NCBI GenBank assembly: GCA_013694495.1
Contig: JACDCH010000056.1
Coordinates: forward strand, 1 to 40,699
Reading direction: 5' to 3'
Length of the DNA stretch: 40,699 nt
Source: Acidimicrobiia bacterium
GTDB taxonomy: Bacteria > Actinomycetota > Acidimicrobiia > Acidimicrobiales > JACDCH01
The notes beneath the pieces were generated by a model, which had not been told where the DNA came from, made no database searches, and worked only from the letters and a program-made list of their open reading frames with translations. Shown piece by piece: positions 3,880 to 36,150 of the stretch. Each line of letters starts with the position of its first letter. Positions within the stretch are counted from its first letter, which is position 1. A program made the position numbers and the translations under genes.

Positions 3880-3965
3880 CTTCGACACGGATGCAGGCGT
3901 CGGAGGCGAAGCGGGAGGTCAACCAGTCGATCGATCCGTCCCGGCCCTCGACGCCGGCACGGGCC
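3880..3965 (-). pseudogene. Possible orphan N-terminal fragment of a GH15 (glucoamylase/trehalase-like) gene
   Basis: The minus frame reads GRDGSIDWLTSRFASDAC, resembling the GH15 N-terminal block dGsidWLc.PRFDS.a.F. Nothing else of the family is present and there is no credible start. Confidence 0.3.
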
Positions 3966-3967
3966 CT

Positions 3968-4441
3968 ATGTTGGTGGCCGTGAAGGTGCTGGTCGCGCTC
4001 GACGAATCGGCGGTGTCGATCCACGCGGCCCGTGAGGCCGTGCGGCTCTTCGCATCGTCCGACGCGGAGTTCCTCGTGATCAACGTCGCTCGCAGTCCGA
4101 CCCCGTGGATCTACCCGGCCGGGTACGGCGTCGCCGCCGCCATGCCACCGCTCGACCTACAACAGCTCGCTGAGCCGTCGGAATCCGACGTCGCCGCCAC
4201 CGCGGCGAGGGCGGGCATCGACGATGCCGAGGTGCTCACCGACGTCGGGGACCCCGTCGCCTGCATCTGCGCGGCCGCCGAGGACCACGATGTCGATGTC
4301 GTCGTCGTGGGCTCCCATGACCGCGGCGTGCTGTCGAGGCTGCTCGACCCGTCGGTCGCAGCTGGGGTCGTGAAGGGCACGTACCGCCCGGTCCTCGTCG
4401 TCAGCGGCACGCCGCCCGAACCGACCGGCGCCGCAGGGTAG
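3968..4441 (+). CDS. Universal stress protein (UspA family)
   Basis: KVLVALDES....A...A block, then DVVVVGSHDRGVLSRLLDPSVAAGVVKGTYRPVLVV, the typical USP C-terminal ATP-binding motif. Confidence 0.85.
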   Translation: MLVAVKVLVALDESAVSIHAAREAVRLFASSDAEFLVINVARSPTPWIYPAGYGVAAAMPPLDLQQLAEPSESDVAATAARAGIDDAEVLTDVGDPVACICAAAEDHDVDVVVVGSHDRGVLSRLLDPSVAAGVVKGTYRPVLVVSGTPPEPTGAAG

Positions 4442-4485
4442 CCACCAGCGCACCCCTCACGGCCCCGATCGGGGGATGGCGATGA

Positions 4486-5145
4486 TCACGGCCGGTCTGG
4501 CGGGGCTTGAGAGTCGAGGCTGGCGAGGTCGAGGCGGGCGGCGACCCGGGGCCAGTCGATGATGGCCCAGATGGTGTCGAAGAACGCGCCCTTGTCGTTC
4601 TCGTACTGCAGGTAGTAGGCGTGCTCCCAGGCGTCGATGGCGAGGATCGGCACCGTGCCTTGGCCGTGGTTGCCCTGATGGTCGTAGGTCTGCTCGATGA
4701 CGACGCGGCGGCCCGTCGGTTCCCACGACGCCAGAGCCCACCCCGAGCCCTGGATGGTGCTGGCCGCTTCGATCATGTGGGTCTTGAAGGGCGCGAAGCC
4801 TCCGAAGTTGGCATCGAGCTGCTCAGCGACCCAACCGGTCGGTTCGCCGCCGCCGTCGGGGGAGAGACACTGCCAGAACAGGCTGTGCAGCACGTGGCCG
4901 GACAGGTTGAACGCCAGGTTCTTCTCCAGCATCGAGAGCTGGGTGTAGTCGTTGCCGGTCCGTGCTTCCTGCAAGCGTTCGATCGCTCGGTTGGCGCCGG
5001 CGACGTAGGTGGCGTGGTGCTTCGAGTGGTGGAGCTCCATGATGCGAGACGAGATGTGCGGTTCGAGCGCGCCGTAGTCGTAGCGGAGATCAGGCAACCG
5101 GTAGATCTGGTCGCTGGCATCGCCGGCATCGCTGGTCGTGGTCAT
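4486..5145 (-). CDS. sodA: Fe/Mn-family superoxide dismutase
   Basis: LPDLRYDYGALEPHIS, MELHHSKHH, GHVLHSLFW, QGSGW and DAWEHAYYLQY motifs. Close to mycobacterial SodA by eye. GGGAGA SD before the ATG. Confidence 0.95.
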   Translation of the reverse strand: MTTTSDAGDASDQIYRLPDLRYDYGALEPHISSRIMELHHSKHHATYVAGANRAIERLQEARTGNDYTQLSMLEKNLAFNLSGHVLHSLFWQCLSPDGGGEPTGWVAEQLDANFGGFAPFKTHMIEAASTIQGSGWALASWEPTGRRVVIEQTYDHQGNHGQGTVPILAIDAWEHAYYLQYENDKGAFFDTIWAIIDWPRVAARLDLASLDSQAPPDRP

Positions 5146-5338
5146 GATCGGGTTCTCCCGTCGAGGTGCATCGGTGTGTCGGTCGGTCGTCTGCAGGCGA
5201 TGCCGACGTCGACTCCAAGGGGTGCATGTCGTTGTCGGTGTGGACCCGGATCACGTTCTTGTCGACGTCGCGGTTGGGGATGATGACGGACTCGCCGTCG
5301 TCGGTGGTGAGCCGGGCTTGGTCCACCATCGGCTGCAT
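5090..5338 (-). CDS. Small hypothetical protein upstream of sodA; 3' end ambiguous
   Basis: High GC3 only for the first ~40 codons (MQPMVDQARLTTDDGESVIIPNRDVDKNVIRVHTDNDMHP). The tracked ORF then runs 56 nt into sodA. An alternative frame ends in an ATGA overlap with the sodA start at 5142-5145, so there may be a frameshift at the CCCC run near 5215. Confidence 0.3.
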   Translation of the reverse strand: MQPMVDQARLTTDDGESVIIPNRDVDKNVIRVHTDNDMHPLESTSASPADDRPTHRCTSTGEPDHDHDQRCRRCQRPDLPVA

Positions 5339-5635
5339 TCAGCTGCGGCCCAACCGGCGTCGAGCGGTGCTGAGGGTTTGGTGGCGGTCCGAGGCCCGAG
5401 TCCGCGCCCTGTGCCAGGCCAGCTTGGCGGCCTCCCAGACGATGGCGCCAATGACCAGGGTGATCGCCAACAGCAGCCACTGGGGCATCTCGAAGTCGAA
5501 CCACAACCACTCCACACCGGTCGAATGCCCGTTCTGGACGATCAGCAGCGCCGCCGCTACCGCAGCCATCGCGCCGACGAGCAGACCCCACCGGAACGGT
5601 CGGCGCTTCTCGATCGAACGAAGATCATCGGCCAA
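5339..5635 (-). CDS. LapA/DUF1049-like small membrane protein
   Basis: Two TM helices with LLIVQNGHSTGVEWLWFDFEMPQWLLL, a DUF1049-type pattern. TTG start. The stop abuts the next ATG (TGAATG). Confidence 0.6.
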   Translation of the reverse strand: MADDLRSIEKRRPFRWGLLVGAMAAVAAALLIVQNGHSTGVEWLWFDFEMPQWLLLAITLVIGAIVWEAAKLAWHRARTRASDRHQTLSTARRRLGRS

Positions 5636-5690
5636 TGCTTTGGTCGTCCGTCGGTGGGTTCACCGACGTCTTGCCACCGGTTGTGGTCAT
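5625..5690 (-). CDS. 21-codon upstream ORF with the strongest SD of the locus
   Basis: CCAAGGAGGCAAC precedes the ATG at 5690 (MTTTGGKTSVNPPTDDQSIGR). The stop at 5625-5627 overlaps the TTG-start region of the DUF1049 gene in another frame. Confidence 0.25.
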   Translation of the reverse strand: MTTTGGKTSVNPPTDDQSIGR

Positions 5691-5892
5691 GTTGCCTCCT
5701 TGGTTCCAGCGTCGTCCGGGGATCGATCCAGCGCGCGATGGACTCGTGAGCGGCAGTTCCAGCTGCGGACCGGGCGGGGCGCCCACAGCGTCGAACGCGG
5801 GCCCGCATACCCCATCCCGCGCGGTCCGAGTCTTGGGCCCGCGCTCAAGGCCCGATGCCGTTAGCCAAGCCGGAAACCGAGAGACTGGAGCG

Positions 5893-6846
5893 ATGCGCCT
5901 TCGACTGAGCTCGTTGAAGGAGCGGGTCCGGGCCAGCCTGTTCTTCGTTCCCATGCTGGCGGTGATCGGCGCCATCGCCTTCGGGCTCGTCGCCCTTGGC
6001 CTGGACGGGCACATCGACCCGGCCACCGACCTGCCACTGGGGTTCACGTCGACCGTGGACAGCGCCAGAGTCGTCCTGAGCACGATCGCCGGTGCCACCA
6101 TCACCTTCGCCGGCATCGCCTTCTCGATCTCGCTGCTCACCATCCAGCTCGCATCGAGCCAGTACTCGCCGCGGGTCGTGCACACCCTGTTCCGTGACCC
6201 GTTCAACAAGCGGGTCATGGCCCTGGTCGTCGGAACCTTCACCTACTGCGTCGTCGTGCTGCGCTCCATGCGATCATCGCTCGAGGACGGTGGCGATCCC
6301 AACATCCCGAACCTGTCCGTGGCCATCGCCGTCGTCCTGGGCATCACCACCATCCTCGCCATCGTCGCCTTCATCAATCACAGCGCCCACACGATGGACA
6401 TCAGCGAGATCCTCGAACGGGTCGAACACGACGCCATCGTTCACATCCGCGATGAATGGACGTCGGCCGGCACCGGCGACGGTCGGCACGACCCCGTGCC
6501 CACCGTGGAGGAACCCGTCCACATCGTGCGCTTCGAACGCAGCGGATGGGTCCAACAGGTCGACCTCGACAAGCTCCTGGAGTGCGCACCCGACGACACG
6601 CTGGTGCGCTTGGACACCTTTCCCGGGCGTTACGCCGTGGAAGGAACACCGTTGTGCGCGCTGTCGCTGCCACCCGAGAACCGTGAGCAAACCGAACGCG
6701 GCTTGCGCAACGCCATCGGCCTGGGCGGCACCCGAACGATGCAGCAAGACGTCTCCTACGGCCTGCGCCAGCTGGCCGACGTCGCGCTCAAGGCCCTCTC
6801 ACCCGGCATCAACGACCCGACGACCGCTCAGGACGCGATCTTCCAG
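5893..6846 (+). pseudogene. DUF2254-family membrane protein, apparently 3'-truncated
   Basis: GGAG SD plus ATG at 5893. N-terminal TM helices, then the conserved run TMQQDVSYGLRQLADVALKALSPGINDPTTAQDAI. The family-like sequence stops at ~6846 with no stop codon. The open frame continues to 7194 only as the antisense of the hemerythrin gene. Confidence 0.6.
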
Positions 6847-6869
6847 GTGACCCCGCCGTCGGGGTCACC
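6846..6869. terminator. Perfect 10-bp stem / 4-nt loop hairpin between convergent genes
   Basis: GGTGACCCCG CCGT CGGGGTCACC. It sits exactly where the DUF2254 homology ends and 25 nt from the hemerythrin gene stop. Confidence 0.5.
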
Positions 6870-6893
6870 CTGGTGCCGCGCCCGCTGGTCGGT

Positions 6894-7610
6894 TCACGCG
6901 AGGCCGAGGCGTGACGCCAGCGCGGCGACGTCGGCGGGGGAGAGGAGAGAGCCGACCAGGCGCCACACGCCGTCGAAGACCTCGGCAGGAGCGCCGGCCT
7001 GCAGGCCACCGAGGAGCTCGGTGCGGTCGTCGATGTTCATGGCGGGGATCATGAGGGCGAGGGACTGGCCCATCTCGGCCGGCGGGATCGAGCCGATGAT
7101 CTGCCGGTGCACGCCGACGACCGCCTCGACACCGATGGCCGCTTCGAGGCCGGGCATGATGACGCGCTCCTCGAGGTCCTGGTGGGCGAGGTAGCTGCTG
7201 GTGAAGGAGGCGAGGTCGAGGTGGAGGAGGTGCAGGAGCCGCCGCTCGTCGCCGGCCGGCGCGTCGGCCGCCTCGGCGGCGAGGAGGACCAGCCCTTGGG
7301 CGCGCCCCTCGAAGCTCAGGTGGTCGACCGCGACCTGGTCGCGCACGTCCGGCAGGTGAATCTCGAGCAGTGGTTGGATGGCGGCGTCCTCGTGCTCGGC
7401 GTGCGACTCGAGCATCCGCTCGACGTCGGCGACGTGCGCGGCGAGGGCGCAGCGGCCGCCCCGGTCGGACGGGTCGGTGGCGGCCGCGGTGGTCACGAGG
7501 GCGAACAGCTCGGCTCGAATGGCCTTGTGGATGTCCTTGTAGAGGTCGAAGGTGACCAGCTCGAAGCGGGCAGGGGCGGTGGTGATCTCGGTGATCGTCA
7601 TGGAGAGCAT
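6894..7610 (-). CDS. Hemerythrin (HHE cation-binding) domain protein
   Basis: DIHKAIRAEL, ESHAEHEDAAIQPLL, VDHLSFEG and AHQDLEERVIMP give the H / HxxxE / H / HxxxD-like ligand pattern in two helical halves. The start is 7610 or 7601 (both ATG). Confidence 0.75.
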   Translation of the reverse strand: MLSMTITEITTAPARFELVTFDLYKDIHKAIRAELFALVTTAAATDPSDRGGRCALAAHVADVERMLESHAEHEDAAIQPLLEIHLPDVRDQVAVDHLSFEGRAQGLVLLAAEAADAPAGDERRLLHLLHLDLASFTSSYLAHQDLEERVIMPGLEAAIGVEAVVGVHRQIIGSIPPAEMGQSLALMIPAMNIDDRTELLGGLQAGAPAEVFDGVWRLVGSLLSPADVAALASRLGLA

Positions 7611-7615
7611 CGTGA

Positions 7616-7632
7616 GGGTCCGCCACGGACCC
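7616..7632. promoter_or_regulatory. Inverted repeat in the divergent hemerythrin / split-barrel promoter region
   Basis: GGGTCCG CCA CGGACCC lies within the 66-nt intergenic region. An AT-rich TAAATA at 7661-7666 lies 10 nt before the GTG at 7677. Confidence 0.25.
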
Positions 7633-7676
7633 CGCTCCTGAAAGGGCGCTGAGCGAATGCTAAATACCTGCTGAAC

Positions 7677-8150: not shown

Positions 8151-9559
8151 CTGAGGCCGTCGAGCTCCGTCTCCAGGACCTCGCCCGCTGCTTCGACGGC
8201 GCCATCCCGGTGGTGCTCGTCACCGTGTCGGCCGCCGGCGTCCCCAACGTCACCTACCTCTCCAAGGCCCACGTCGTCGACCACGAGCGCATCGCCCTCT
8301 CGAACCAGTTCCTGTCGAAGTCGGCCCGGAACCTGGCCGAGGTGCCGCGAGGTTCGCTCCTGATCATCGAGCCGACGGCGCACGACGAGTACCGCCTCGA
8401 CATCGCGTACGAGCGGACCGAGCGCCGGGGCCGGGTGTTCGACGAGCTCAAGTCGGAGATCGACGCCATCGCTGCGCACACGGGGATGCAGGAGGTGTTC
8501 CGGCTCCGGGCCGCCGACATCTACCGGGTCACCCGCATCCGCCAGGTGCCAGCCAACGAGCGGGCGGACGGCAGTGCCGGCACCGACCCGTGGACCACCC
8601 GGCCTCCTCGCGCCACCGCCGACGTCGCCGGCCTCGGCGAGCTCTGCGCCCGCATCGCCCGGTGCACCGACCTGGACGTCCTCGTGAAGGTCACGCTCGA
8701 CGGGCTGGCCGAGCTGCTCAGCTACGAGCAGTCGATGCTCCTGCTCCTCGACGAGGGAGGCCGCCGCCTGTTCACCCTCGCCAGCCACGGCTACGAGCAC
8801 GAGGGCGTCGGGTCCGAGGTGGCGGTTGGCGAGGGAGTCATCGGGCTCGCCGCCGAGCGGGCGGCGCCGGTCCGGGTCGGGAACGCGCACCAGATCGCCA
8901 AGTACGCGAGGTCCGTCCGCCGGTCGTTCGAGGCTTCCGGCGCGATCGAGCCGGGGCGCGAGATCGAGCTCCCCGGTCTCCCCTTCGCCGACAGCCGGGT
9001 GGCCGTCCCGGCCTTGGCGCTCGGGCAGCTGGTCGGGGTGCTGGCCGTCGAGGCGGTGGCATCGGCCGAGTTCGTCGCCGCCGACGAGGCCGCGCTCACG
9101 GTGATCGCATCGCTCGTCGGCACGGCGATCGAATCCATTCGAGCCGAGGAACGGGCCGCATCAGCTGGCGCGCCGGCGAAGACGTCACCGTCCGCGTCGC
9201 CGATGGCAGGCGCGGCCGGCGCGGCGCCCACGACCCACGTCCGGTTCTTCGCGATCGACGGCAGCACGTTCCTCGACGGCGACTACGTCATCAAGGGCGT
9301 TGCCGGACGCCTCCTCTGGTCCCTGCTGCGGCAGTACGAGCGCGAGGGCCGCACCGAGTTCACCAACCGCGAGGTCCGTCTGGACCCGACGCTCGCCCTT
9401 CCCGACTTCCGCGACAACTTCGAGAGCCGCTTGATCCTGCTGAAGCGGCGGCTCGACGAGCGGGAGGCGACGATCCGCGTCGAGAAGACCGGCAGGGGCC
9501 GCTTCCGCCTCGCCGTCACGGGCAACGTCCGCCTCGACGAGTTGCCCACCTCGAGCTAA
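8147..9559 (+). CDS. Three-domain protein: PNPOx-like split barrel + GAF + C-terminal winged-helix-like (OmpR/PhoB-type) domain
   Basis: The GTG at 8147 overlaps the upstream TGA (GTGA). Residues 1-135 are split-barrel-like (IPVVLVTVSAAGVPNVTYLS...). Residues ~165-330 are GAF-like (LDGLAELLSYEQSMLLLLDEGGRRL...GEGVIGLAAERAAPVRV...VAVPALALGQLVGVLAVE). The C-terminus GRLLWSLLRQY..GRTEFTNREVRL....FESRLILLKRRLDE...IRVEKTGRGRFRL mimics a trans_reg_C winged helix. Confidence 0.8.
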   Translation: MTEAVELRLQDLARCFDGAIPVVLVTVSAAGVPNVTYLSKAHVVDHERIALSNQFLSKSARNLAEVPRGSLLIIEPTAHDEYRLDIAYERTERRGRVFDELKSEIDAIAAHTGMQEVFRLRAADIYRVTRIRQVPANERADGSAGTDPWTTRPPRATADVAGLGELCARIARCTDLDVLVKVTLDGLAELLSYEQSMLLLLDEGGRRLFTLASHGYEHEGVGSEVAVGEGVIGLAAERAAPVRVGNAHQIAKYARSVRRSFEASGAIEPGREIELPGLPFADSRVAVPALALGQLVGVLAVEAVASAEFVAADEAALTVIASLVGTAIESIRAEERAASAGAPAKTSPSASPMAGAAGAAPTTHVRFFAIDGSTFLDGDYVIKGVAGRLLWSLLRQYEREGRTEFTNREVRLDPTLALPDFRDNFESRLILLKRRLDEREATIRVEKTGRGRFRLAVTGNVRLDELPTSS

Positions 9560-9574
9560 CTCGCCGGGTGTCGT

Positions 9575-10029
9575 CCCCTCGCGGGTCGATGCCGCGGGCG
9601 TTGCGCAGGAAGGCGCGGGCGGCGGGGTCGGTGGTGAGGGACTCGGCCTTCTCGCAAGCGGCGGCCGCACCGTCGCCGTTGCCGCCGCCGGCGGCGGCGG
9701 CGGCGAGGAGGTGGGCGCCGAGCAGCCCATGCCGGCTGGAACCGGGCCAGCCGTTCGGCGTCGAGCGTCGCCAGCGCGTCGAGCCCGGCGTCGAGGTCGG
9801 GGACATCGATGACGAACACGCCGCGAGCATCTCCTTGGCCTCCGCGAACGGGCCGTCCTGGACCTGCAGGCTGCCCTGGCGGGTGGTCACCTGGCTCGAC
9901 GCCGTGATGTCGGCGCCCTCGAAGGCCGCCTGCAGTTGCTGGCGCCCCTCGCGGCGAACGATCCGGATGATCTCACCCATCGGGGCCCAGCCGACGACGT
10001 CGGGGACCTCTCGCCGCGACGCGCTCCCC
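9575..10029 (-). pseudogene. Fusion remnant: N-truncated, frameshifted YCII/DGPF-family gene joined to the C-terminal tail of its usual ECF-sigma neighbour
   Basis: VTTRQGSLQVQDGPFAEAKEML, then after a -1 shift VFVIDVPDLDAGLDAL (YCII end). This runs directly into LDAERLARFQP.HGLLGAHLLAAAAAGGG...ACEKAESLTTDPAARAFLRNA, the C-terminal helical tail of YCII-associated ECF sigma factors. There is an in-frame TAG just upstream of the fragment. Confidence 0.6.
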
Positions 10030-10042
10030 CTACGGTTCAGCT

Positions 10043-10576: not shown

Positions 10577-11743
10577 GTCGGGCTGCTCCGCCGCAACGTG
10601 CGCGGCGATGCCGACGCCCTCGGAGATGCCGACCAGCACGGCCTGGTCGCTGCCCGCGGCGTCGAGCACGGCCAGGACCTCCTCGGCTCGTTCGTGGACC
10701 GTCTCGCCCCCCCGCAGGGGGTCCGACAGCCCGGTGCCCCGCTTGTCGAACAGCAGCAGCCGGTTGCCGGCGCCGACGCGTCGGTGGAAGCGGACCCACC
10801 ACGGGAACTGCCACTGGTACTCGACGTGGGACAGGAAGCCGGGCACGACGAGGACGTCGATCGGGCCGTCGCCGACGACCTGGAACGCGACGTGCCCCGA
10901 ACCGCCCTGTGTGCCGACCAGCGCGAACTGCGTGCGGGTGGGCAGCGCCACCGCTTCGACGCCGTCCAGCCCGGTACGGATCTCGAGCGAGGTGGCGTCG
11001 GGCACCTCCAGCTCGGGCTGGCGCTCGAGGATGGCGAGCTCGAGCTCGGCCAGCGACGGGCCGGGAGCGACCCCGACCTCGTCGGCCAGGACCCGCCGGT
11101 AGTCCTGGAAGCGGCGCAGCGCGTCGACGGCGCGTCCGTCGCGGTAGAGCACGAGCATCTGGAGGCGCACGAGCCGCTCGCGGTACGGGTGATCGACGAG
11201 CAGCAGCTGGATGCGGTCGTCCAGGCCCGCCGTCTGCCCGAGCTCGAGGTCGAGCTCCAGCCCGTCCTCGATGGCGTCGAGCCGGAGCCGGTCGAGTCGG
11301 GTGATCGCCGGATGCGTGAAGCCGGCGGCGACCAGGTCCGCCAGGGCATCGCCCCGCCAGAGGGCGAGGGCTGCCCCGAGTTGATCCCGCACGGCCGCCG
11401 CGACGTCGCCGGCCCGAGCCGCCGACGCGAGCCGCTCGAAGCAGCGAGCATCGAGGTGGTCGTCGTCGAGGTCGAACCGGTAGCCGCCGCCCCAGGTCGA
11501 CAGCTCGGCCCACGGCGCCGCCAGGACCTGGCGCACCTGCTTGACGTAGGTCTGCAGCGTGTTGGCCGCCGTGCGGGGCGGGTCGCCCTCCCACAGCGCG
11601 TCGACGAGCCAGCCGGTGCTGATCCACTCGTTGGGCTGGAGGGCGAGGAGGGCGACGAGGCGGCGGACTTTGGGCGGCAGCGCCACGATCCCGCCGTCGA
11701 CCTCCAGCTCCAACGGCCCGAGGATCCGGAGCCCGTCCGCCAT
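10577..11743 (-). CDS. SARP (AfsR/DnrI-type winged helix + BTAD) regulator fused to an alpha/beta-hydrolase domain that appears 3'-truncated
   Basis: ATG at 11743. LRILGPLELEVDG...PKVRRLVALLALQPNEWISTGWLVDALWEGDPP (SARP wHTH). ALWRGDALADL...HPYRERLVRLQMLVLYRDGRAVDALRRFQDYRRVLADEVGVAPGP (BTAD). Then VLVVPGFLSHVE...LLLFDKRGTGLSD...AVLVGISEGVGIAAHVAAEQP (hydrolase, through the nucleophile elbow only). There is no stop before it runs antisense into the SRPBCC gene. Confidence 0.75.
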
Positions 11744-11830
11744 GGTCCGACCGTAGCGATCTCGCTTCGCGGGCGCTCGGCTCCCGCCGGCGGAGCGCGG
11801 CGTGCTGATCCAGCATGATCGGAGCGGCGC

Positions 11831-11917
11831 GACCACGAGGAGTACCGGCGCGAGGACGGGCGCTGGCGCATCGCCAAGACCCACCTCGCCCGCCTCCGCC
11901 TCGACCCCCTCTCGTAG
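11831..11917 (+). pseudogene. Orphan C-terminal fragment of a SnoaL/NTF2-like gene
   Basis: DHEEYRREDGRWRIAKTHLARLRLDPLS then a stop. This matches the usual C-terminal y..r.dGrWri..r pattern of SnoaL_4/NTF2-like proteins. There is no upstream body or start. Confidence 0.35.
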
Positions 11918-11919: not shown

Positions 11920-12069
11920 GAGCCCCGGATCGTCACGGTCGACCAGGCCGTGGACCTGATCCGCTCGGGCAAGCCGCTCCTGCTGCAGCCGCTCGTGGGC
12001 GGCCTGCCGCCCGAGATCGCCTGGCGCTACCTCCGCATCGTCACCGACGACGTGATGACGGCGCTCTGA
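11920..12069 (+). pseudogene. Orphan coding fragment of unknown family (near 100 percent GC3, about 50 codons)
   Basis: EPRIVTVDQAVDLIRSGKPLLLQPLVGGLPPEIAWRYLRIVTDDVMTAL then a stop. It vaguely resembles a CoA-transferase N-terminus. The upstream part of the tracked ORF is junk. Confidence 0.3.
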
Positions 12070-16508: not shown

Positions 16509-17084
16509 TCAGACGCGCTCGATGATGATGGCGGGCGCCATCCCGCCGCCGGCACACATCGTGACCAGCCCGACCTGCTTGTCCCGGAGCTCGAGCTCGT
16601 CGAGGACGGTGCCGATGAGGATGGCTCCGGTGGCGCCGATGGGGTGGCCCAGGGCCATCGCCCCGCCGTTGACGTTGACCTTGTCGCGATCGAGGTCGAG
16701 GTCGCGCATGAACTTCTCGGAGACCACCGCGAAGGCCTCGTTCACCTCGAACAGGTCGATGTCGTCGACGGTCATGCCGGCCCGGGCCAGGATCTTGCGG
16801 GCCGAGGGCACCGGCGCGTTCAGCATGAGCGTCGGGTCGTCGCCCATGTTCGAGCTGGCGACCACCCGCGCCCGGGGCTTCAGGCCATGGGCCTGACGTC
16901 ACCTGGGAGCTCGTGCCCCACACGATGTCGTCGACCTCGGCCGTGTCGAACCCGTTGCGCTCGGCAAGGGCGGCGAGCACCGTGGCCGCGATGTGCTGCG
17001 GGTGGAGGTGGGCGAGGGCGCCCTTGCCCTGCTTGCCGATCCCCGAGGCGTGCGGCAGGCATCGATGATGAAGGCGTCGGCCAT
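16509..17084 (-). pseudogene. Acetyl-CoA acetyltransferase (thiolase) remnant: frameshift plus loss of about 200 central codons
   Basis: AGGGGA SD plus ATG at 17084. MADAFIIDACRTPRG, a 1-nt shift near 17045, then IGKQGKGALAHLHPQHIAATVLAALAERNGFDTAEVDDIVWGTSSQV. This joins at ~16895 directly to [34 protein letters not shown]...[17 protein letters not shown]...[15 protein letters not shown]. The catalytic Cys region is absent. Confidence 0.8.
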
Positions 17085-20656: not shown

Positions 20657-21459
20657 TCAGGCCACCGGCTCGGCCCGCACGTACACGAGGGTGGCCACCC
20701 GATCGGCGGCCGTGTCGACCAACTCGACCTCCATCGGCCCCCGGGGCCGTCGCCGAGGAGGCGGCAGCGCGTCCGGACCGGCCCCACCCGCGCCTGCGCC
20801 AGGTAACGCAGGTCGAGATCGGTGACGACGACGGGCGCTCCCAGCCGGGCGCCGAGCAGCTCCTCGGCGGCGGCCTCGGCGACCAGCGCCACCATCGCGC
20901 CCTGGAGCGTCCCGGCCGGGTTGCACACGTCCGGGGTGACGGCGATCTCCACGACACCGTCGGCCGCGTCGACGACGACGATGCCCGCCTCCTCTCGCAC
21001 GGGCCGGTCGAGCGTCCCGGCGTCGTGGAAGAGCGCCGGCGCCGCCTCGGGGGCAACCATGACCTTGGGCGGATCGGTCGGCTTGCGGGGCACGGCGACG
21101 AAGGCCACGGCCCCGCTGCAAACCAGTGCGCCGGCGCCGTCGACGACGTCGACCACAGCGGTCCCGGACCGTCGCCCGTGGCGGAGGATCGTGGTCCGGG
21201 CGGTGAGGCGGGCCGGCGCCGCGACCGGCCGCATCCGCACCGACATGTCGGTCGTGAAGCACCAGGCGTCCGGGTCGACGTCGAGCGTGATGCCGGCCAC
21301 GGCGTCGACGAGGAACGAGAAGACGCTGGCCCGCACCATGCCGTGGTGAAGCACCTCGGGGTGCGGCGTGAGGTCGAGCAGCAGCGCATCCTCTTCGTAC
21401 CGGGCGGTGACGCCGAGTCGGGACGGGACTGCGGTCCGGCGGCTGGGAATGTCGGTCAT
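20657..21459 (-). CDS. Tandem hotdog-fold (PaaI-type) thioesterase with an apparent frameshift near its 3' end
   Basis: There are two PaaI-like halves (VRASVFSFLVDAVAG...; GTLQGAMVALVAEAAAEE...TDLDLRYLAQARVGPVRTRCRLLG). The last ~30 codons (PMEVELVDTAADRVATLVYVRAEPVA) lie in another frame. The shift falls in the CCCCCGGGG run at 20732-20754. Confidence 0.7.
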
Positions 21460-22984: not shown

Positions 22985-23591
22985 GCGGGCGCGCACCTGG
23001 CCGCCATCAGTTGCCTTGAGGAGGAGTGGTTCGTCGCCGGCGACGCCAGCGCCTACGCAACCGACGGCGAGCTCGCCCCCGACGGGCGCTGGTCGGTGAC
23101 GCCGGCTTCCACGGCGCCGTTCCGGACGCGCCTGCTGGTGCGCCGCCCGCGCGACCCCCAGCGGTTCTCCGTCCACAGTCGCGGCGGAGGGGCGGCGCGC
23201 TTCGACGGCGATCCCGCATCCGCGGCTCCGAGGTCGGCTCCCGCCCCGATCACGACGAGCGAACCGGGCAGCACCACGATCGAGCGCGACGAGCACGGCC
23301 TGGCGCTCGGCGGGATCCCGACGCCGTCGGGTCGACGTGCCGCTGTCGGTGCTCAGTGGTGAGGCAGCACCGGCCGGCGACATCCTGTGCATGCTCTTCG
23401 GCAGCTCGACGCCGTTCGATGCGGCGACGCTCGCTTCGCTCTACCCGACGAGGGACTCGTACCTCGACGCGTTCGACGCCGCCCTCGACGAGACGGTCGC
23501 CGCCGGCTTCGCGCGGGCCGCCGACCGCGAGGCCTGCGTCGCCGAGGCCCGGGTCCGCGCCGACGAGCTCCTGTTCGGCTCGTCAGGGTGA
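22985..23591 (+). pseudogene. Remnant of an actinobacterial alpha/beta-hydrolase-domain gene (normally about 450-500 aa): N-terminal piece, short internal piece and C-terminus with a frameshift
   Basis: LEEEWFVAGDASAY....DGRWSV....FRTRLLVRRPRDPQRFS (N-terminal family block). A junk stretch follows. Then ERDEHGLALGGIPTPS, a shift near 23330, and VDVPLSVLSGE...ILCMLFGSSTPFDAATLASLYPTRDSYLDAFDAALDETVAAGF. The catalytic core is missing. Confidence 0.6.
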
Positions 23592-24593: not shown

Positions 24594-24720
24594 TCAGGCG
24601 ACGACGCCGCGGACCTTCAGGTCGATGATGGCGTCCATGTCGAGGCCGAGGCTTTCGTGGTCGCCATGTTCGTTGAAGTCGGGGGCCCGGCGCGTCGACG
24701 GCAGCTGGTCGCCGACGGTG
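24594..24720 (-). pseudogene. Orphan C-terminal coding fragment of unknown family upstream of the SDR
   Basis: The high-GC3 frame reads VTVGDQLPSTRRAPDFNEHGDHESLGLDMDAIIDLKVRGVVA then a stop at 24594. There is no usable start. Upstream it runs into the 19-nt tandem repeat. Confidence 0.25.
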
Positions 24721-24762
24721 ACGGGTGTGGCCCGGGGTGACGGGTGTGGCCCGGGGTGACGG
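24718..24762. repeat. 19-nt tandem direct repeat, about 2.4 copies
   Basis: GTGACGGGTGTGGCCCGGG at 24718-24736 and 24737-24755, both perfect, then GTGACGG. The unit length is not a multiple of 3. Confidence 0.9.
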
Positions 24763-27661: not shown

Positions 27662-27719
27662 CAGTCGGCCGGCGACGGTCAAGAGCTCGGCGGCGGGCGG
27701 TGGTGGCGGCGGCGGGGCT

Positions 27720-27744
27720 ACGTCCGGGCTCTCCGCCCGGACGT
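27720..27744. terminator. GC-rich hairpin downstream of the ligase gene
   Basis: ACGTCCGGGC TCTCC GCCCGGACGT, a 10-bp stem with a 5-nt loop, 59 nt after the stop. No U-tract. Confidence 0.4.
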
Positions 27745-27811
27745 AGCGGCGCCCGTTCACGTCCGGCAAGGCCCCCGCTTCGCTCCTCGCCCACGCCTTG
27801 CGGGAGGTGCC

Positions 27812-29309: not shown

Positions 29310-29323
29310 TGACGCCGACGTCA
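29310..29323. promoter_or_regulatory. Near-palindromic 14-mer in the 44-nt divergent promoter region of the double TetR; candidate operator
   Basis: TGACGCCGACGTCA, 8 nt upstream of the TetR start codon. Confidence 0.35.
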
Positions 29324-29346
29324 GACACCGTGGCGGCCATCACCCC

Positions 29347-30009
29347 ATGATCATGCCCCGGGGGCTCGTCGAGGGGGATCGCCTGATGGACAACGACGAC
29401 ATGGTGCTGGTGAGCGTCGACGACCACGTGGTCGAGCCGCCGCACCTCTTCGAGGGCCGGCTCCCGGCGAAGTACGTCGACCTGGCGCCGCAGTTCATCA
29501 CCCGCGCCGACGGCACGAACGCCTGGGTCTACGAGGGCACCGAGATCGGCAAGGTCGCGCTGAACGCGGTGGCCGGTCGTCCCAAGGAGGAGTACGGCAT
29601 GGAGCCGACGTCCTTCGCCGAGCTGCGCGCCGGTGGCTAGGAGAAGGTGCTGACCTGCTTCATCGACGACCGCTTCGGCGTCGCCAACCGGCAGTACCTC
29701 AACATGGACAACGTGATGTGGGAGTGCGACTACCCGCACTCCGACTCCACGTGGCCGTTCGCCCCCGAGCAGGTGGCCGAGCACTTCGTCGGCGTGCCCG
29801 ACGACGACGTCGACCGGATCACCCATCGCAACGCCATGACGCACTTCTCGTACGACCCCTTCACCGCCCTCGGCGGGCGCGAGAACTGCACGGTCGGGGC
29901 GCTCAGGGCGAACGCGGCCGGCCACGACGTGGCCATCCGCTCCACCAACGCCTCCAATGTCGGGGGCCACGCCACCAAGGCCGTCGCCCTCGCCATCCCC
30001 GGTCGCTGA
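29347..30009 (+). pseudogene. Amidohydrolase_2-family gene with about 180 central codons deleted and an in-frame stop at the junction
   Basis: N-terminal part DMVLVSVDDHVVEPPHLFEGRLPAKYVDLAPQF...LNAVAGRPKEEYGMEPTSFAELRAGG, then TAG at 29638-29640. This is followed immediately by FIDDRFGVANRQYLNMDNVMWECDYPHSDSTWPF...ITHRNAMTHF (C-terminal part). The metal-binding core is missing. Confidence 0.75.
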
Positions 30010-30141
30010 CGCCGGCCCCGCGAGATCGGCGAGGGCACCAACCAGATCCAGCACCTCGTGATCGGTCGCGCCCATGGTTGCTCGGCCGGCGGGCCGGCGG
30101 GCCGGTGGGCCGGTGGGTTCAGCGGGGCGGCGCCGGGGTAG
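30010..30141 (+). pseudogene. Orphan C-terminal tail of an acyl-CoA dehydrogenase
   Basis: REIGEGTNQIQHLVIGRA matches the invariant ACAD C-terminal iyEGTneIq.lvI.R block. It starts directly after the amidohydrolase stop. Confidence 0.4.
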
Positions 30142-30212
30142 GAGCCGCCCGCTTCCGCAGCCCAGTCCCGGGCGTCGGAATGCTCCCCCCTCACACGACA
30201 CCGGAGCCGAGC

Positions 30213-30422
30213 ATGCGCGTCGACGACCCGGGCCACGGCCGGCCCTTGCTGACCTACGACCAGGGTATGGCTCTCTCGCTGGTCGCCCGCCGCGGCCTGA
30301 CCTACCGGGAGGTCGCCGACCGGATGGGCCGTCCCCCGAGCGAGGTGCTGCGGCTGCTCCGCGGCGCGCTCGGCGGCCTGAAGGACCACCTGAGGTCGCC
30401 GAGCGGCTCCTCCGCGCCGTGA
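30213..30422 (+). pseudogene. Sigma-70 region-4 (ECF-type) HTH fragment, 69 codons
   Basis: LTYDQGMALSLVARRGLTYREVADRMGRPPSEVLRLLRGALGGLKDHL is a region 4.2 pattern. No region 2 is present. It could instead be a stand-alone small HTH protein. Confidence 0.45.
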
Positions 30423-30429
30423 CGCCCGT

Positions 30430-31257: not shown

Positions 31258-31306
31258 GCGCCCAACCTACGTCGGAGGGCTCCCGTGGCCGCCCGTACCA
31301 TCCACG

Positions 31307-31437
31307 GGTGCCGTCGTCACCGCGCGCGACCCGGAGCGCAGCGACTGCCTCTGGGTGAACCCGTCCGCGATGGACTTCCGGCTGGCGCGCGTGAAGGACT
31401 TCGCCCTCGTCGATGCCGACGGTGCGGTGGTCCAGCG
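31307..31437 (+). pseudogene. N-terminal fragment of a class II aldolase/adducin-family gene
   Basis: GAVVTARDPERSDCLWVNPSAMDFRLARVKDFALVDADGAVV matches the g.iS.R....d.fwvnP.g..f..l...Dl..vd.dG.vv block. Confidence 0.45.
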
Positions 31438-31530
31438 CCGGCATCGAGTCCTTCACGCCGATCCTCGACGTCACCGCCGAGGGCTGCGACCGCATGATCG
31501 CCGTCAACCTCACCGGCACGTTCGCGTCCG
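31438..31530 (+). pseudogene. Internal SDR fragment fused out of frame to the aldolase fragment
   Basis: AGIESFTPILDVTAEGCDRMIAVNLTGTFA is the NAGI....d.t.e.wdr.i.vNl.G.F block of classical SDRs. It has neither a Rossmann N-terminus nor a catalytic YxxxK. Confidence 0.45.
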
Positions 31531-31578
31531 GGGCCCGGCGAGGGGGCTTCGCCGAGCGGTCCGGACCCTGCTCTCAGC

Positions 31579-32973
31579 TCAGAGCTGCCACGCGTCCGGG
31601 ACCGCCACGCCGAGGGCGGCCGCGAGGTCCTGGGCGGGCCGTAGCGCCGACAGCGAGAACCAGGGGGCCTCCTCGAGCGCCCGGGCGAGCATCGTGGTCG
31701 CCTCGGCGTCGTCGCCGGAGGCGTGCAAGGCCGCCGCGGCGTGCACGAGGAACGTGGGGTCGACGGGGCCGAGGCGGATCGCGGCCCGAGCGTGGTCGGC
31801 GACGGCCGTCTGGTCGCCGGCGAGGGTCAGCGCCCACGCCAACGTGTCGTTGGCGAGGACGTTCTCGGGCCGGATCCCGTGGGCGATCCGGGCCAGGTCG
31901 GCGGCGCGCGCCGCGCCGGCGGCATCGGCAGCGCGGTCGGCCTCGAAGCGCGCTCTGTCGAGCTCCGTGAGGTGACCGACGGCCTCCTCGTCGGCGAAGT
32001 TGGCCCGGACCACTGCCTCGGAGCGTTCGGCCTCGGCGGTTCGACCCTGGAGGCGCAGCAGGTCGGCGAGCAGCGTCGCCGTCACTGCGCTGGGGCCGGA
32101 CTCGACGAGCGTCGCGGCTGCCTCCGTGGCGCCGGCGAGGTCGCCCCGGGCGACATCGACACGGATCGCGCCCAACGCCGCGGCGATGAGCCCGGGCGAT
32201 GCGGCTTCGGCCCGCGCGTACGCGCCCTCGGCGTCGTCGACCTGGCCGAGGCGCAGGTGGAGGTCGCCGACCAGGGCGGCGGTGACGGCGGTGCGGAAAC
32301 CGCTCGGTGCGCCGGCCGCCTCGGCCTGCTGCATGGCCTGGAGGGCGCCGGGGAGATCGCCGTGGAGCTCGCGCAGGTACGACGTGCGGGCCAGGGCGGG
32401 CAGCCCAGGGTCGAGATCGAGCATGCGCTGGAGGTCGGCGGCCGCCGCGTCGTAGAGGCCGAGCTCGACCTGGGCGTCGACGACGACGCCGAGCGCCTCG
32501 GCGCTGAACGGGTTGGCGGCCACGGCGACGCGCCCGTGCTCGAGGGCCTCGTCGAAGCGGTGCAGGGTGAGGGCGAGCGAAGCCCGCGCGTAGCGGGTGG
32601 CGAATGCCTCCGGCGCGAGCTGCTCGGCGGTGGCGATCGCGGCGTCGGCCCGGGCGAACAACGTGAGGTCCCCGGACTCGATGCCCTCGGTGACGGCCAC
32701 GACGCCGATGCGCTGCAGGGCATCCAGGTCGTCCGGACGAACCTCGAGGCGAGCCTCGAGCGCGGCCAGCTGGGCCGCGGGCGACGGGTTGACCGTGACG
32801 AACACGGTCTCGGTGGGGGGTGCGGGATCGAGGAACGCGAACCGGCCGACGAGCACGCCGATGACGGCGGTGAGGGCGACGGCCGGGACGAAGCGCCAGC
32901 GGGAGGCGGGCCGGACGGCCCGCCCCCCGTCGGCCCGACGGCCTTCGTGATCGGTGAAGGTGACGTCGGTCAT
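31579..32973 (-). CDS. Membrane-anchored tetratricopeptide-repeat protein
   Basis: There is one N-terminal TM helix (WRFVPAVALTAVIGVLVGRFAF), then about 400 aa of Ala/Leu-rich TPR-like helical repeats. The start is 7 nt after the DUF4331 stop. Confidence 0.85.
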   Translation of the reverse strand: MTDVTFTDHEGRRADGGRAVRPASRWRFVPAVALTAVIGVLVGRFAFLDPAPPTETVFVTVNPSPAAQLAALEARLEVRPDDLDALQRIGVVAVTEGIESGDLTLFARADAAIATAEQLAPEAFATRYARASLALTLHRFDEALEHGRVAVAANPFSAEALGVVVDAQVELGLYDAAAADLQRMLDLDPGLPALARTSYLRELHGDLPGALQAMQQAEAAGAPSGFRTAVTAALVGDLHLRLGQVDDAEGAYARAEAASPGLIAAALGAIRVDVARGDLAGATEAAATLVESGPSAVTATLLADLLRLQGRTAEAERSEAVVRANFADEEAVGHLTELDRARFEADRAADAAGAARAADLARIAHGIRPENVLANDTLAWALTLAGDQTAVADHARAAIRLGPVDPTFLVHAAAALHASGDDAEATTMLARALEEAPWFSLSALRPAQDLAAALGVAVPDAWQL

Positions 32974-32980
32974 CAGTGGG

Positions 32981-34900
32981 TCAGCTGTCGTAGCCCTCGT
33001 GCGGGTGCGCGAGGTACGGGAAGGTGGTGAGGAACGGCAGGTCGTTGCCGCTCACGCCGTCGCTGAGCTGGTTGTTCGGCGCCCGGTTGAACTCTGGGGT
33101 GAACGGCGTGGCGCCGGCGGCCGCCTGGAGGGCGATGTCGACGGTGTCGTCAATGAGACGGCGGCCGTTCGGCCACCCGTCGTTCTCGCCGGCGAGGAGG
33201 CCGAGGGGGTTCTGGGCGTTGGGGTCGGTCCCGGTCGGCGGGATCGAGGTGTTGAGCCGCAGCATCTCGGTCGCCTGGCCGTTCGGGAGCTGGTTGACCC
33301 CGGGGAGGCCCGTGAGGAAGATCCCCACGAGGTCGTTGCGGGGCGGCGGCGGCACCGTGATCCCCGGGTACAGGAGCTCGATGAGGCGGCCGAGCTCGGG
33401 GTCGGTGACGAGCGGCAGGAACGCGGCGTCGCCGGTCGTCTCGGATGCGTTGAACGCGTCCTTCAGGCCGAGGGGCACGACGACCTCGTTCACGAGGGGA
33501 CCCCCGAGTCGGGACACCTGCACCCAGTCGCCGCTGTTCATCGGCTGGCTGCTGTCGCCGTCGACGAACACGCGGGTGGCCCGACGGTACGTCGTCGAGT
33601 AGACGCCGATCACCGGGTTCTCGCCCGCGTCGGGCACGTTGAAGGCACGCTGCACGAAGGACGCCATCTGGGCCCGCGTGACGGGGTTGGTCGGGCAGTA
33701 CCGGCCGGTCGTGCAGCCCAGGGTGACGCGGGCGGCGGCGAGGGCGTTGATGTCCGCCTCCTGCAGGACGCCGTTGTCATCGCTGAACGCGTCGACGCTG
33801 CTCGCCGGGAGGTCCGCCGCGTTCACCAGGAACGTGGCCATCTGGGCCCGCGAGACGGGGTCGGTCGGGCAGTAGGCGCGGGGTCCGCACCCCTGCACGA
33901 TCCCGGCGGCGGCGATGGCGTTGATGTCGGCCTCGAACAGGTTGGTCTCGTCGTCGTCGAACGAGTCGACGGTAGTGGCCGGCAGGTCGAGGGCGTTGAC
34001 GAGGAACCGGGCCAGCTGGCCGCGGTTGATGTTGACGGCGGGGGAGTAGTTCCGCCCACCGGTGCCCATCGTGATGCCCGCCTTGGCGATGGCGTCGATC
34101 GCCTGCTCGTGCGTCGTGCCGTCGTCGTCATCGAAGTAGTCCGAGTCGGTCGTCAGCATGTCCGTCGGGACCTGCAGCGCGATCGTGTGGACGTTGTACC
34201 CGTTGGTGGCGTTCCGGCCCGGCTCGTTCGGGAGCGGGATGAGGTGCGCCTCGTTGAGCGGACGCAGGCCACCGAGGTCGAAGATCGACCCCAGGTCGAC
34301 CGGGAAGGCCTCGTCGCGCTGGCCTGCGAAGACCTCGACGCCGTTCGGCAGCGTCGTGATGGCAGCGTTCGCCAGGTCGGCGTAGTTCGGGGTCGAGCGG
34401 GGCCCGACGCGGTTCGGCGGGACGGGGATGCCCGTGCCGAGCTCCGTGCGGACGCCGTCGACGACCTGGGTCACCGAGTAGGTCTGGCGCAGGTTGAAGT
34501 CCGGATCCGTGAGCGACGTGATCGGGCCCGTGGCGTACAGGAACGTGTTCGGGTTCTGGATCGTCGTCGTGAAGCGGAACTCGTAGACGATGTCGTCCAC
34601 CGCGTCGCCGTCGTTCTCGATGTTGATCTCGTAGAGGACGTCCTCGCCGAAGTTGTAGAAGTTCGGCCCACCGGCGGGCTCCTCGAGCGGGATCCAGTTG
34701 GAGATGAGGGTGACTGTGTCGGGGTTGTCGGGGCTGACGAACGCGTAGACGTCGGTGTTGTCAGCAACCGGGTCCTCGGCGATCAGTGGGGCTTCTCGGT
34801 GGCTGGACGCCTCGACAGCGGCGAGGCTGCCGAGCGCGGTCGCGCCCGCCAGTCCTGCGGCTGCGAGGGCACGTCGGCGCCGACGGTTCGGTTCGGTCAT
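32981..34900 (-). CDS. Secreted DUF4331-family protein with an internal insertion of three SLH-like repeats
   Basis: AAAGGAAC SD plus ATG at 34900. Twin-arginine-like signal NRRRRRALAAAGLAG...AVEA. The mature N-terminus is SSHREAPL. DUF4331-type blocks are NTDVYAFVSP, LISNWIPLEEP, YEINIENDGD, NVHTIALQVP, GGPLVNEVVVP, GWPNGRRLIDDTVDI and FPYLAHPH. The insert spans aa ~252-424. Confidence 0.85.
   Translation of the reverse strand: MTEPNRRRRRALAAAGLAGATALGSLAAVEASSHREAPLIAEDPVADNTDVYAFVSPDNPDTVTLISNWIPLEEPAGGPNFYNFGEDVLYEINIENDGDAVDDIVYEFRFTTTIQNPNTFLYATGPITSLTDPDFNLRQTYSVTQVVDGVRTELGTGIPVPPNRVGPRSTPNYADLANAAITTLPNGVEVFAGQRDEAFPVDLGSIFDLGGLRPLNEAHLIPLPNEPGRNATNGYNVHTIALQVPTDMLTTDSDYFDDDDGTTHEQAIDAIAKAGITMGTGGRNYSPAVNINRGQLARFLVNALDLPATTVDSFDDDETNLFEADINAIAAAGIVQGCGPRAYCPTDPVSRAQMATFLVNAADLPASSVDAFSDDNGVLQEADINALAAARVTLGCTTGRYCPTNPVTRAQMASFVQRAFNVPDAGENPVIGVYSTTYRRATRVFVDGDSSQPMNSGDWVQVSRLGGPLVNEVVVPLGLKDAFNASETTGDAAFLPLVTDPELGRLIELLYPGITVPPPPRNDLVGIFLTGLPGVNQLPNGQATEMLRLNTSIPPTGTDPNAQNPLGLLAGENDGWPNGRRLIDDTVDIALQAAAGATPFTPEFNRAPNNQLSDGVSGNDLPFLTTFPYLAHPHEGYDS
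33635..34135 (-). repeat. Three tandem about 55-aa SLH-like coding repeats inside the DUF4331 gene
   Basis: FDDDDGTTHEQAIDAIAKAGITMGTGGRNYSPAVNINRGQLARFLVNALDLP / FDDDETNLFEADINAIAAAGIVQGCGPRAYCPTDPVSRAQMATFLVNAADLP / FSDDNGVLQEADINALAAARVTLGCTTGRYCPTNPVTRAQMASFVQRAFNVP. Confidence 0.75.
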
Positions 34901-34944
34901 TCGGGTTCCTTTCTGAGCGGCCCGGGACGTCCGGGTCGAGGGGG

Positions 34945-35823
34945 CTACAAGGCGGGTGAGAGCACGCCGATGACGACCCAGCGGTCGTCGATCGGTGCGA
35001 GTACGGCGCGCAGTGGAACGGTGCCGTCGATGGCGACGACGCGGGCCCACGTCGTGGCGTCGGGCCCGTAGGCGGACACGAAGCGGGCGGCGTCGACGGC
35101 GGGCAGGGCGGACGCCGTGGCGGAGGGCGCGACCGATGTCACGCCGCAGAGGTCGTCGGCCAGGCCGGTGGTGCCGACCAGGGTGCCGTGCTCGCGGACG
35201 CCGTCCGTGCAGTCCTGGCGGGCGGCGGCCCACTCGGCGGCGGCCGGGGCGACCCCCGAGTCGTCGAGGAGGCGGGGCTGGACGGTGGTGGCGCCGAAGT
35301 CCACGCGCCAACCGCCGTCCTCGGCCACGGCGGTCCACGTCGAGGTCGCCTCGGCCGGGACGAGACCGAGCACGCCGTCGAGGCCGGCGCGCAGGCGCAG
35401 CAGCACATCGACGGTCGGCCCGTCGCCGCCGGGCCGGAGCTCGAAGCCCACGACCGGCGGGATGGCCTCGTGGCCGGCCTGCCAGCGGGCCGGGGTGACG
35501 TAGGCAGCGCGGTCGCCGGCGGCGAGGAGGCCGAAGGAGGCCAGGAAGTCGCCCTCGGACTCGGCCTGGAGGAAGGCGGTGATGGCCGCGCGGGGGTCGG
35601 TGGCCGGCTCCCCGCCCGGGGGGATGTCGGCGGGGGGTGCCTCGGCGAGGGTGATCGGCGGCGCGTCGGCGTTGCTCGCGGCCTGCAGCGGGGTCGACCC
35701 GCCCCGGCCGAAGGCCACGTACGCGATCACCAGGCCGACCAGGAGCCCGGCGGCGAGGGTGCCGGCCTGCCGCACGGCCCCGGACCCGGCGCGGCGCGTC
35801 GGCGGCGTGATCTCCTCGGTCAT
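34945..35823 (-). CDS. Hypothetical N-terminally membrane-anchored extracytoplasmic protein (first gene of the DUF4331 operon)
   Basis: A short cytoplasmic N-terminus, then one TM helix (LAAGLLVGLVIAYVAF), a Pro/Ala linker and a ~200-aa domain with two Cys. High GC3. No family recognised. Confidence 0.6.
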   Translation of the reverse strand: MTEEITPPTRRAGSGAVRQAGTLAAGLLVGLVIAYVAFGRGGSTPLQAASNADAPPITLAEAPPADIPPGGEPATDPRAAITAFLQAESEGDFLASFGLLAAGDRAAYVTPARWQAGHEAIPPVVGFELRPGGDGPTVDVLLRLRAGLDGVLGLVPAEATSTWTAVAEDGGWRVDFGATTVQPRLLDDSGVAPAAAEWAAARQDCTDGVREHGTLVGTTGLADDLCGVTSVAPSATASALPAVDAARFVSAYGPDATTWARVVAIDGTVPLRAVLAPIDDRWVVIGVLSPAL

Positions 35824-35899
35824 CTCCGGCTCTACGGTGCCGACGATCGGAACGGATGCCCCGGGCGGCGCCGAACGTGCGTCGGACGGTCGGCATCAG

Positions 35900-36150
35900 G
35901 TCCTGAGCAGCCGGTCGAGGCGCTGGACCAGGCGGGGCCTCCACGCCCGGCCACCGGGCAGCCCTTCGAGGCCGGGGACTCCGAGCTGCGGGAGATCAAG
36001 GCGACGATCGAGCAGGCACGCGGCGGCCACGACGGCCCCATGCCCGGGCTGTTCGGCGCCGCCGTCGCCGTGCCCGGCGACGCGCCGCTCCTCGATCAGG
36101 TGCTCGGGATCACCGGTCGCGACCAGGACTGGACGCGCCCCAGCGGCTGA
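35900..36150 (+). pseudogene. Orphan high-GC3 coding fragment without a start codon, family unknown
   Basis: The frame reads ...EQPVEALDQAGPPRPATGQPFEAGDSELREIKATIEQARGGHDGPMPGLFGAAVAVPGDAPLLDQVLGITGRDQDWTRPSG then a stop. The only in-frame ATG/GTG after 35823 is at ~36039. Upstream of 35823 the frame is antisense to a real gene. Confidence 0.3.

Follow-up and report, generated by a model that had tools for sequence, protein, structure and literature searches.

How has a stretch of actinobacterial DNA without any recognisable mobile element come to hold so many incomplete genes? The question is raised by JACDCH010000056.1, a complete metagenomic contig of an uncultured Acidimicrobiales actinobacterium, the whole 40.7 kb of which is called the window here. 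Its G+C content is 72%, with a strong third-position bias. A preliminary description of this DNA had claimed dense gene wreckage at 15–17 loci and had proposed either deletion-biased decay or a problematic assembly as its origin. We mapped the genes with a codon-usage model, followed by Pfam and NCBIfam scans of every coding-like open reading frame (ORF), and checked the remnants also against the PDB, by tblastn against plasmids, and against the ORFs of 82 related loci (local BLAST, coding-like ORFs only). These profile and translated searches returned partial-coverage matches at 14–15 loci, close to the number claimed. We attribute them to recent, deletion-driven gene loss in eroded and reshuffled catabolic clusters of the lipid/steroid type, a loss that is still segregating, and give this reading a probability of about 0.7.

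Gene remnants in the window

The incomplete loci comprise three genes that lack their centre, two that are cut at the 3' end, and 9–10 orphan heads or tails (Table 1). Twelve of the remnants cover 5–48% of their reference and the DUF2254 gene covers 72%, and a tblastn search of the references against the whole window found none of the missing gene parts elsewhere in it. A recognisable stump lies in 9 of the 11 spacers longer than ~190 nt, and across 32 kb about one locus in three is broken.

The excess over background was measured with a single tblastn pipeline run on the window and on the 82 related Acidimicrobiales loci (1,523 kb), using as references only those proteins for which three or more other loci support the extent and counting places at ≥50% identity. 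Of the 258 places in the controls, 253 were full length (36 of these spread over two or more frames) and 2 were fragments. In the window there were 7 places: 3 of full length and 4 that count as fragments, although one of the 4 is a false positive from a motif of a short-chain dehydrogenase/reductase (SDR). Fragments therefore account for 3–4 of 7 places in the window versus 2 of 258 in the controls (Fisher's exact test, p = 1e-4 to 3e-6). In relatives, too, the genes for AMP-ligase, acyl-CoA dehydrogenase (ACAD) and amidohydrolase can be split, and a CoA-transferase gene is short (L084 5861–7182 and 16855–17978; the JGI contig of P0125; L093 11168–12591). These may be real frameshifts or long-read assembly errors.

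The centre-deleted genes are those of a thiolase, an alpha/beta hydrolase and an amidohydrolase, and in each of them both ends could be matched to full-length homologues, as had been proposed. The thiolase has lost ~215 codons, with the junction at ~16896–16910 and the expected frameshift near 17040 (remnant sequence recurring in contigs L081, L082 and L083). From the Abhydrolase_10 gene ~260 codons are deleted, with a frameshift near 23320 (recurring in L089). The amidohydrolase lacks 220 codons, and a TAG stands exactly at the junction, at 29638–29640 (recurring in L086, L087 and L088). Since head and tail are still adjacent in all three, only deletion explains these remnants. In other lineages, members of this amidohydrolase family have independently lost internal segments at differing positions (P0121, P0129, P0131, P0146, P0203, P0228; L093–L096 6001–6591). 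The variants include a centre-less 196-aa ORF, present in identical form on 7 JGI contigs, and a 271-aa form in a Parafrankia isolate.

The two claimed 3' truncations were located to the nucleotide, and both coincide with the end of a convergent intact gene. In the DUF2254 gene homology stops at nt 6846, in comparison with homologues of 435–445 aa, and the ORF continues to 7194 along the antisense strand of the convergent hemerythrin gene. Among the matches listed, all 119 homologues span the whole 318-residue query; nearly all are 419–487 aa long, and two of the three shorter entries are labelled partial or lie on contigs <2 kb. In the fused SARP-hydrolase gene all 12 hydrolase models end at residue 451–458 and 10 of the 12 at 452–453. 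The cut corresponds to nt 10576/7, the last base (in the stop codon) of the convergent SRPBCC gene, and the codon phase changes at ~10560.

Among the orphan pieces, three that had been left as unknown proved to be the tails of a luciferase-like monooxygenase (LLM), a family III CoA-transferase and a TIGR03086 protein. The CoA-transferase tail has six plasmid matches, five of them annotated as CoA transferase, with E-values from 4e-3, and it recurs in L089 and L090. The ACAD tail, identified as claimed, begins directly after the amidohydrolase stop codon and recurs in L086 and L087. On a JGI contig the gene order is AMP-ligase, amidohydrolase, thioesterase and two ACAD genes, which accounts for the position of the ACAD tail immediately behind the amidohydrolase stump. 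The other short pieces agree with their proposed identities more tentatively. The GH15 piece matches 16 plasmid records in which every annotated feature is GH15 or glucoamylase, each at E ~1–8, with no match in Pfam or the PDB. The SnoaL tail has a profile match, and plasmid tblastn found none. The sigma region 4 piece recurs in L086, as does the aldolase/SDR piece, whose parts match residues 45–87 of a fuculose-1-P aldolase (E 7e-4) and residues 97–147 of an SDR (E 0.02). A supposed fusion of YCII with an ECF sigma factor tail stood in its first half. After frameshift correction the YCII part scores 25.1 bits in Pfam over 36–70 of 95 and is 58% identical to a 107-aa homologue. The stretch at ~9570–9650 resembles a sigma tail by eye, but Pfam, NCBIfam and plasmid tblastn were all negative.

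Frameshifts had also been suspected in complete genes. The phase pattern of the PEP-utilizer suggests three compensating frameshifts, and the frame-corrected peptide gains 1–7 bits in most NCBIfam models and aligns over 90–564 of 568 with PRK08296.1-1. The thioesterase frameshift probably lies in a homopolymer run at a site that no second assembly covers. For the small ORF before sodA no consistent identity emerged, and its suspected frameshift is unconfirmed. An AraC-type gene that encodes only the helix-turn-helix (HTH) part may have lost its N-terminal domain, as judged from its best matches (Table 1).

Table 1. Gene remnants, frameshifted ORFs and a haplotype breakpoint in the window
Feature	Position	Strand	Extent and matches
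PEP-utilizer (PRK08296-like) ORF	1955..3649	+	open throughout; codon phase 2->0->1->2 over 3087-3312
GH15 N-terminal piece	3863..3958	-	~25-30 residues (GRDGSIDWL...RF.S.AC); plasmid tblastn, weak
DUF2254 membrane protein, 3'-truncated	5893..6846	+	residues 1-318 of ~440; profile 1-304 of 368
YCII remnant in 154-aa ORF	9516..9980	-	YCII positions ~26-70 of 95 at ~9763-9926; frameshift near 9815
SARP (Trans_reg_C + BTAD) fused to alpha/beta hydrolase, truncated	10577..11884	-	hydrolase domain cut after ~100-125 of 250-290 positions
SnoaL_4/NTF2-like C-terminal tail	11819..11917	+	profile 110-125 of 126, E 0.024; weak
LLM C-terminal tail	11926..12069	+	residues 285-321 of 329; 59-64% identity to L054 and L065 ORFs (Bac_luciferase)
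AraC-type HTH-only gene, 136 aa	16015..16425	-	best matches: C-terminal 100 residues of 320-aa FtrA/AndR-type regulators
Thiolase remnant	16509..17084	-	residues 2-65 + 281-413 of 413-aa homologue, 76-84% identity
Double-hotdog acyl-CoA thioesterase	20657..21459	-	last 25 codons in other frame; shift in CCCCGGGGG run at ~20737-20745, weak
Abhydrolase_10 remnant	22997..23591	+	residues 27-84 + ~350-468 of 478; profile positions 18-79 + 330-428 of 429
Family III CoA-transferase C-terminal tail	24594..24725	-	L069 ORF residues 392-425 of 425
Haplotype breakpoint	27705..27766		convergent spacer between AMP-ligase and TetR genes; L086 departs here
Amidohydrolase (Amidohydro_2) remnant	29347..30009	+	residues 4-86 + 307-433 of 435, single frame
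ACAD tail (PREIGEGTNQIQHLVIGRA)	30010..30141	+	20 residues, 80% identity to ACAD C-terminus
ECF sigma factor region 4, called as 69-aa gene	30213..30422	+	Sigma70_r4 10-49 of 50, E 8e-4; sigma70-ECF 118-164 of 165; weak
Class II aldolase head + SDR middle, differing frames	31304..31530	+	aldolase residues 58-102 of 272; SDR positions ~84-113 of 195; weak
TIGR03086 (DinB/MDMPI-like) metal-binding protein, C-terminal third	35950..36150	+	profile 125-180 of 180, E 1e-5; Streptomyces TIGR03086 genes, E 6e-5

Recurrence, age and polymorphism of the lesions

An exact-protein look-up retrieved 14 other contigs of the same population from five assemblies (GCA_020063725.1, GCA_020063985.1, GCA_030155825.1, Logan SRR11719865 and Logan SRR18933246). 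Jointly they cover 3195–10832, 12538–18813 and 22813–35537 (~27 kb) at 99.3–100% identity, and the comparison shows that 13 lesions recur in these five assemblies. They include the GH15 piece, the DUF2254 and SARP-hydrolase breaks, the YCII ORF, the three centre-deleted stumps, and the CoA-transferase, ACAD, sigma and aldolase/SDR pieces. L081, L082 and L083 all break at 18540–18813, within the first 320 nt of a fused double-ACAD gene, and this common break points to a paralogue repeat there, or else to another variant among the strains.

The stumps have a G+C content at third codon positions of 0.92–0.98 and codon scores of 0.46–0.59 per codon, at or above those of intact genes. Their identity to homologues (67–84%) is similar to that of intact neighbours, and each carries one or two lesions. 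Because native codon bias and homologue identity are kept and the lesions are few, the stumps appear young. The compositional decay and the many lesions that characterise old pseudogenes are not seen in them.

One haplotype from the same metagenome series shows the DUF2254 break to be polymorphic. Up to 6845, contig L098 has the sequence of the window, apart from the few single-nucleotide polymorphisms (SNPs) given below, and its DUF2254 domain then runs on to profile position 335 at the contig end. The coexistence of this read-on allele in one sample, the retained codon bias and the scarcity of secondary lesions together argue that the decay is recent and ongoing. A search of JGI metagenomes found no exact match to the L098 haplotype. 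Three SNPs between the window and L098 cluster at 6825–6841, in the 21 nt before the breakpoint, with one SNP in the preceding 3.4 kb.

Other contigs differ from the window in arrangement. L092 departs from it left of 9966. L086 matches 27766–35505 with 2 mismatches, all the stumps there included, and diverges again after 35505. On its left flank L086 carries MaoC and two LLM genes in place of the window sequence; this flank is unrelated to the LLM tail in the window. A hairpin with a perfect 12-bp stem and a 5-nt loop (CTACGTCCGGGC-TCTCC-GCCCGGACGTAG) lies at 27718–27746, exactly where L086 departs, and no T-run follows it.

Intact genes and the absence of mobile elements

Some 30 genes appear intact and are interleaved with the stumps, catabolic and regulatory ones included. 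They are the genes for EamA, TetR, Usp, SodA, LapA-like, hemerythrin-like, two PNPOx-type and SRPBCC proteins and a zinc alcohol dehydrogenase; a UvrA-like ABC protein, a glyoxalase, a CYP124-like P450, a fused double ACAD, a YchJ-like protein and two SDRs; APH, an AMP-ligase, a fused double TetR, an F420-type LLM, a TPR protein, a DUF4331-SLH protein and a 292-aa protein; and PRTase, GH1, LacI and MalK. As expected from the preliminary description, the Pfam and NCBIfam scans found no transposase, insertion sequence (IS), integrase or phage domain in any coding-like ORF of the 40.7-kb window. The window also contains no tRNA or Rfam match, and no repeat family, motif or scar common to the junctions was found in it. 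None of the marks of a genomic island is present in the window: it lacks a tRNA or integrase at a border, direct repeats and atypical composition.

The best matches of the fused ACAD have 74–79% protein identity and come from Acidimicrobiales (Salinilacustrithrix, Aquihabitans, Iamia, and Microthrixaceae and Ilumatobacteraceae metagenome-assembled genomes). Both fused double-domain genes, TetR-TetR (437 aa, 27986–29299) and ACAD-ACAD (717 aa, 18496–20649), are kept in relatives. At 13100–16425 the UvrA-like ABC ATPase (796 aa, internally duplicated and containing a zinc finger) adjoins the glyoxalase/bleomycin-resistance-type protein and the HTH-only AraC gene, an arrangement that resembles a DrrC-type drug-resistance module. 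At 32981–34900 the DUF4331 protein, which has S-layer homology (SLH) domains and a tandem 174-nt repeat (33653–34000), is followed by the 292-aa protein, which has no family assignment. Such SLH domains are unusual in this clade. An ORF on the minus strand at 870–1217 has a coding-like score, overlaps the 3' end of EamA on the opposite strand and has no family match.

Probable gene loss by deletion and its alternatives

For this locus the claim of deletion-biased decay is supported: genes lack their centres or ends, and mobile elements play no part. We propose that at least 14 genes were inactivated by repeat-independent deletions, each of which would have taken at least ~0.4–1.7 kb of coding sequence from the gene centre, the 5' part or the 3' part, with a few 1-nt frameshifts added on top. 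The cause may be relaxed selection on redundant paralogues, and the deletions may have arisen by illegitimate recombination or end-joining repair. Deletions that reached into needed neighbours would have been purged by selection, and for that reason several end points would lie exactly at the borders of intact genes and almost all of the long spacers would be gene stumps. The losses would be recent and segregating, as the ~100% identical blocks common to co-occurring strains stop at the borders of stumps. The pattern as a whole suggests that a flexible catabolic region has been losing genes recently and is still doing so, and does not suggest an old global reduction.

Several points weigh against this reading. 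Several of the short pieces rest on weak E-values. Four lesions, namely the SnoaL, LLM and TIGR03086 tails and the thioesterase frameshift, have no second assembly, and the other assemblies may stem from related samples and so may not be independent. Relatives were sought by a contig scan with the fused ACAD, through the closest P450, DUF2254 and amidohydrolase relatives, and by scanning metagenomes with the double TetR; none of those found is close and keeps the gene order, the best having 86–90% protein identity and other neighbours. Finally, it is just as possible that the orphan heads and tails mark where imported DNA segments end.

A bolder form of the same reading is possible, though we hold it to be doubtful. 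In it, a free-living, high-G+C Acidimicrobiales lineage would be in rapid, IS-free streamlining, in which an end-joining-type burst of deletions (each of at least ~0.4–1.7 kb) would be dismantling redundant lipid/steroid clusters while intact and deleted alleles segregate.

The possibility that the orphan pieces are imported ends leads to a more general alternative, in which the locus is a patchwork made by recombination or horizontal transfer and many of the pieces are the cut ends of segments exchanged between strains by illegitimate or homology-facilitated recombination, and not what in-place deletions left behind. The blocks of ~100% identity stop abruptly at 6846, 9966, ~27.7 kb and 35.5 kb, as exchanged segments would, and gene order is not kept in comparison with the relatives at 86–90% identity. 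Intact Abhydrolase_10, thiolase and LLM genes sit together beside the fused ACAD gene in L050, L054, L065 and L051; the stumps of such neighbouring genes are scattered in the window, one of them inverted. The grouping of the intact genes in relatives also speaks for the deletion reading. However, exchange does not account for three centre-deleted genes whose head and tail are adjacent, composition does not change at any block, and the window holds no integrase or transfer gene. We therefore regard a patchwork as an unlikely explanation of the locus.

Somewhat less likely again is a genome-wide reduction of the Mycobacterium leprae type after niche restriction, of which the contig would be a typical sample. 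The breakage of about a third of the loci, the redundant catabolic paralogues among the victims and the lack of any IS element are what such a reduction would leave. This can be judged from only one contig, however, and that contig shows no AT drift at its 72% G+C, has stumps with full codon bias, and keeps ~30 intact genes, regulators, a transporter and sugar-utilisation genes among them. Moreover, strains with other arrangements coexist with it, one of them carrying the DUF2254 read-on.

It is very improbable that the short forms are working, conserved mini-genes. Some are indeed called as genes (97, 120, 112 and 69 aa), and the 196-aa centre-less amidohydrolase on the JGI contigs is unchanged and stands in an operon-like setting, in another lineage. 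However, the forms in the window have a junction stop, frameshifts or no start codon, and they lack their catalytic cores. Of the 120–134-aa amidohydrolase 'short forms' elsewhere, at least one is simply a split gene (237 + 130 aa), and at 72% G+C a stump that is in frame will remain open without any selection for it. The least credible explanation is an assembly or sequencing artefact (chimeric joins, collapsed paralogues, homopolymer errors). In its favour, the contig was assembled from the metagenome of a mixed population, breaks occur in other assemblies at 18.5–18.8 kb and 27.7 kb, and the thioesterase frameshift lies in a homopolymer run that no second assembly covers. Against it, the recurrence of 13 lesions in five other assemblies, from at least two sources (NCBI-deposited and Logan), excludes misassembly, and the loss of 650 bp from inside a gene is beyond what read errors can do.

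Recent gene loss by deletion, the reading we prefer, is a process of a known kind in an unusual setting. Cole et al. reportedly described M. leprae in 2001 as a pseudogene-rich reductive genome. The window resembles it in being actinobacterial, in its lipid/steroid paralogue victims, in the intact genes among the stumps and in having about a third of its loci dead. Unlike M. leprae, it has neither AT drift nor long degraded spacers, and its stumps are young, with 1–2 lesions, one of them polymorphic. A deletional bias in bacterial genomes is said to have been set out in 2001 by Mira, Ochman and Moran. The window agrees with such a bias in that non-functional DNA is deleted and the end points appear bounded by needed neighbours, yet it is unusual in showing so many intermediate stumps at once, in an apparently free-living, high-G+C host. 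Recent pseudogenes, rearrangements and strain-level structural differences are shared with the early degradation in Shigella, Yersinia pestis and Sodalis; in contrast to the IS expansion there, the 40.7 kb hold no IS, transposase or repeat, and plain deletion is seen. Blocks of ~100% identity with differing flanks and a gene order poorly kept in relatives recall flexible islands or plasticity zones, whereas the window has no tRNA, integrase or island borders, and its content is that of ordinary catabolic housekeeping paralogues.

Such dense remnants have mostly been described from host-restricted pathogens and symbionts, usually beside IS expansion. The window would exemplify them in an environmental actinobacterium, with no IS, with young stumps and with a coexisting read-on allele. 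It also carries a warning, as gene callers have turned several of the stumps into 'hypothetical proteins' of 69–154 aa that are now in public protein collections. A population of this kind would suit the measurement of the size spectrum of spontaneous deletions, their rate and the selective placing of their end points.

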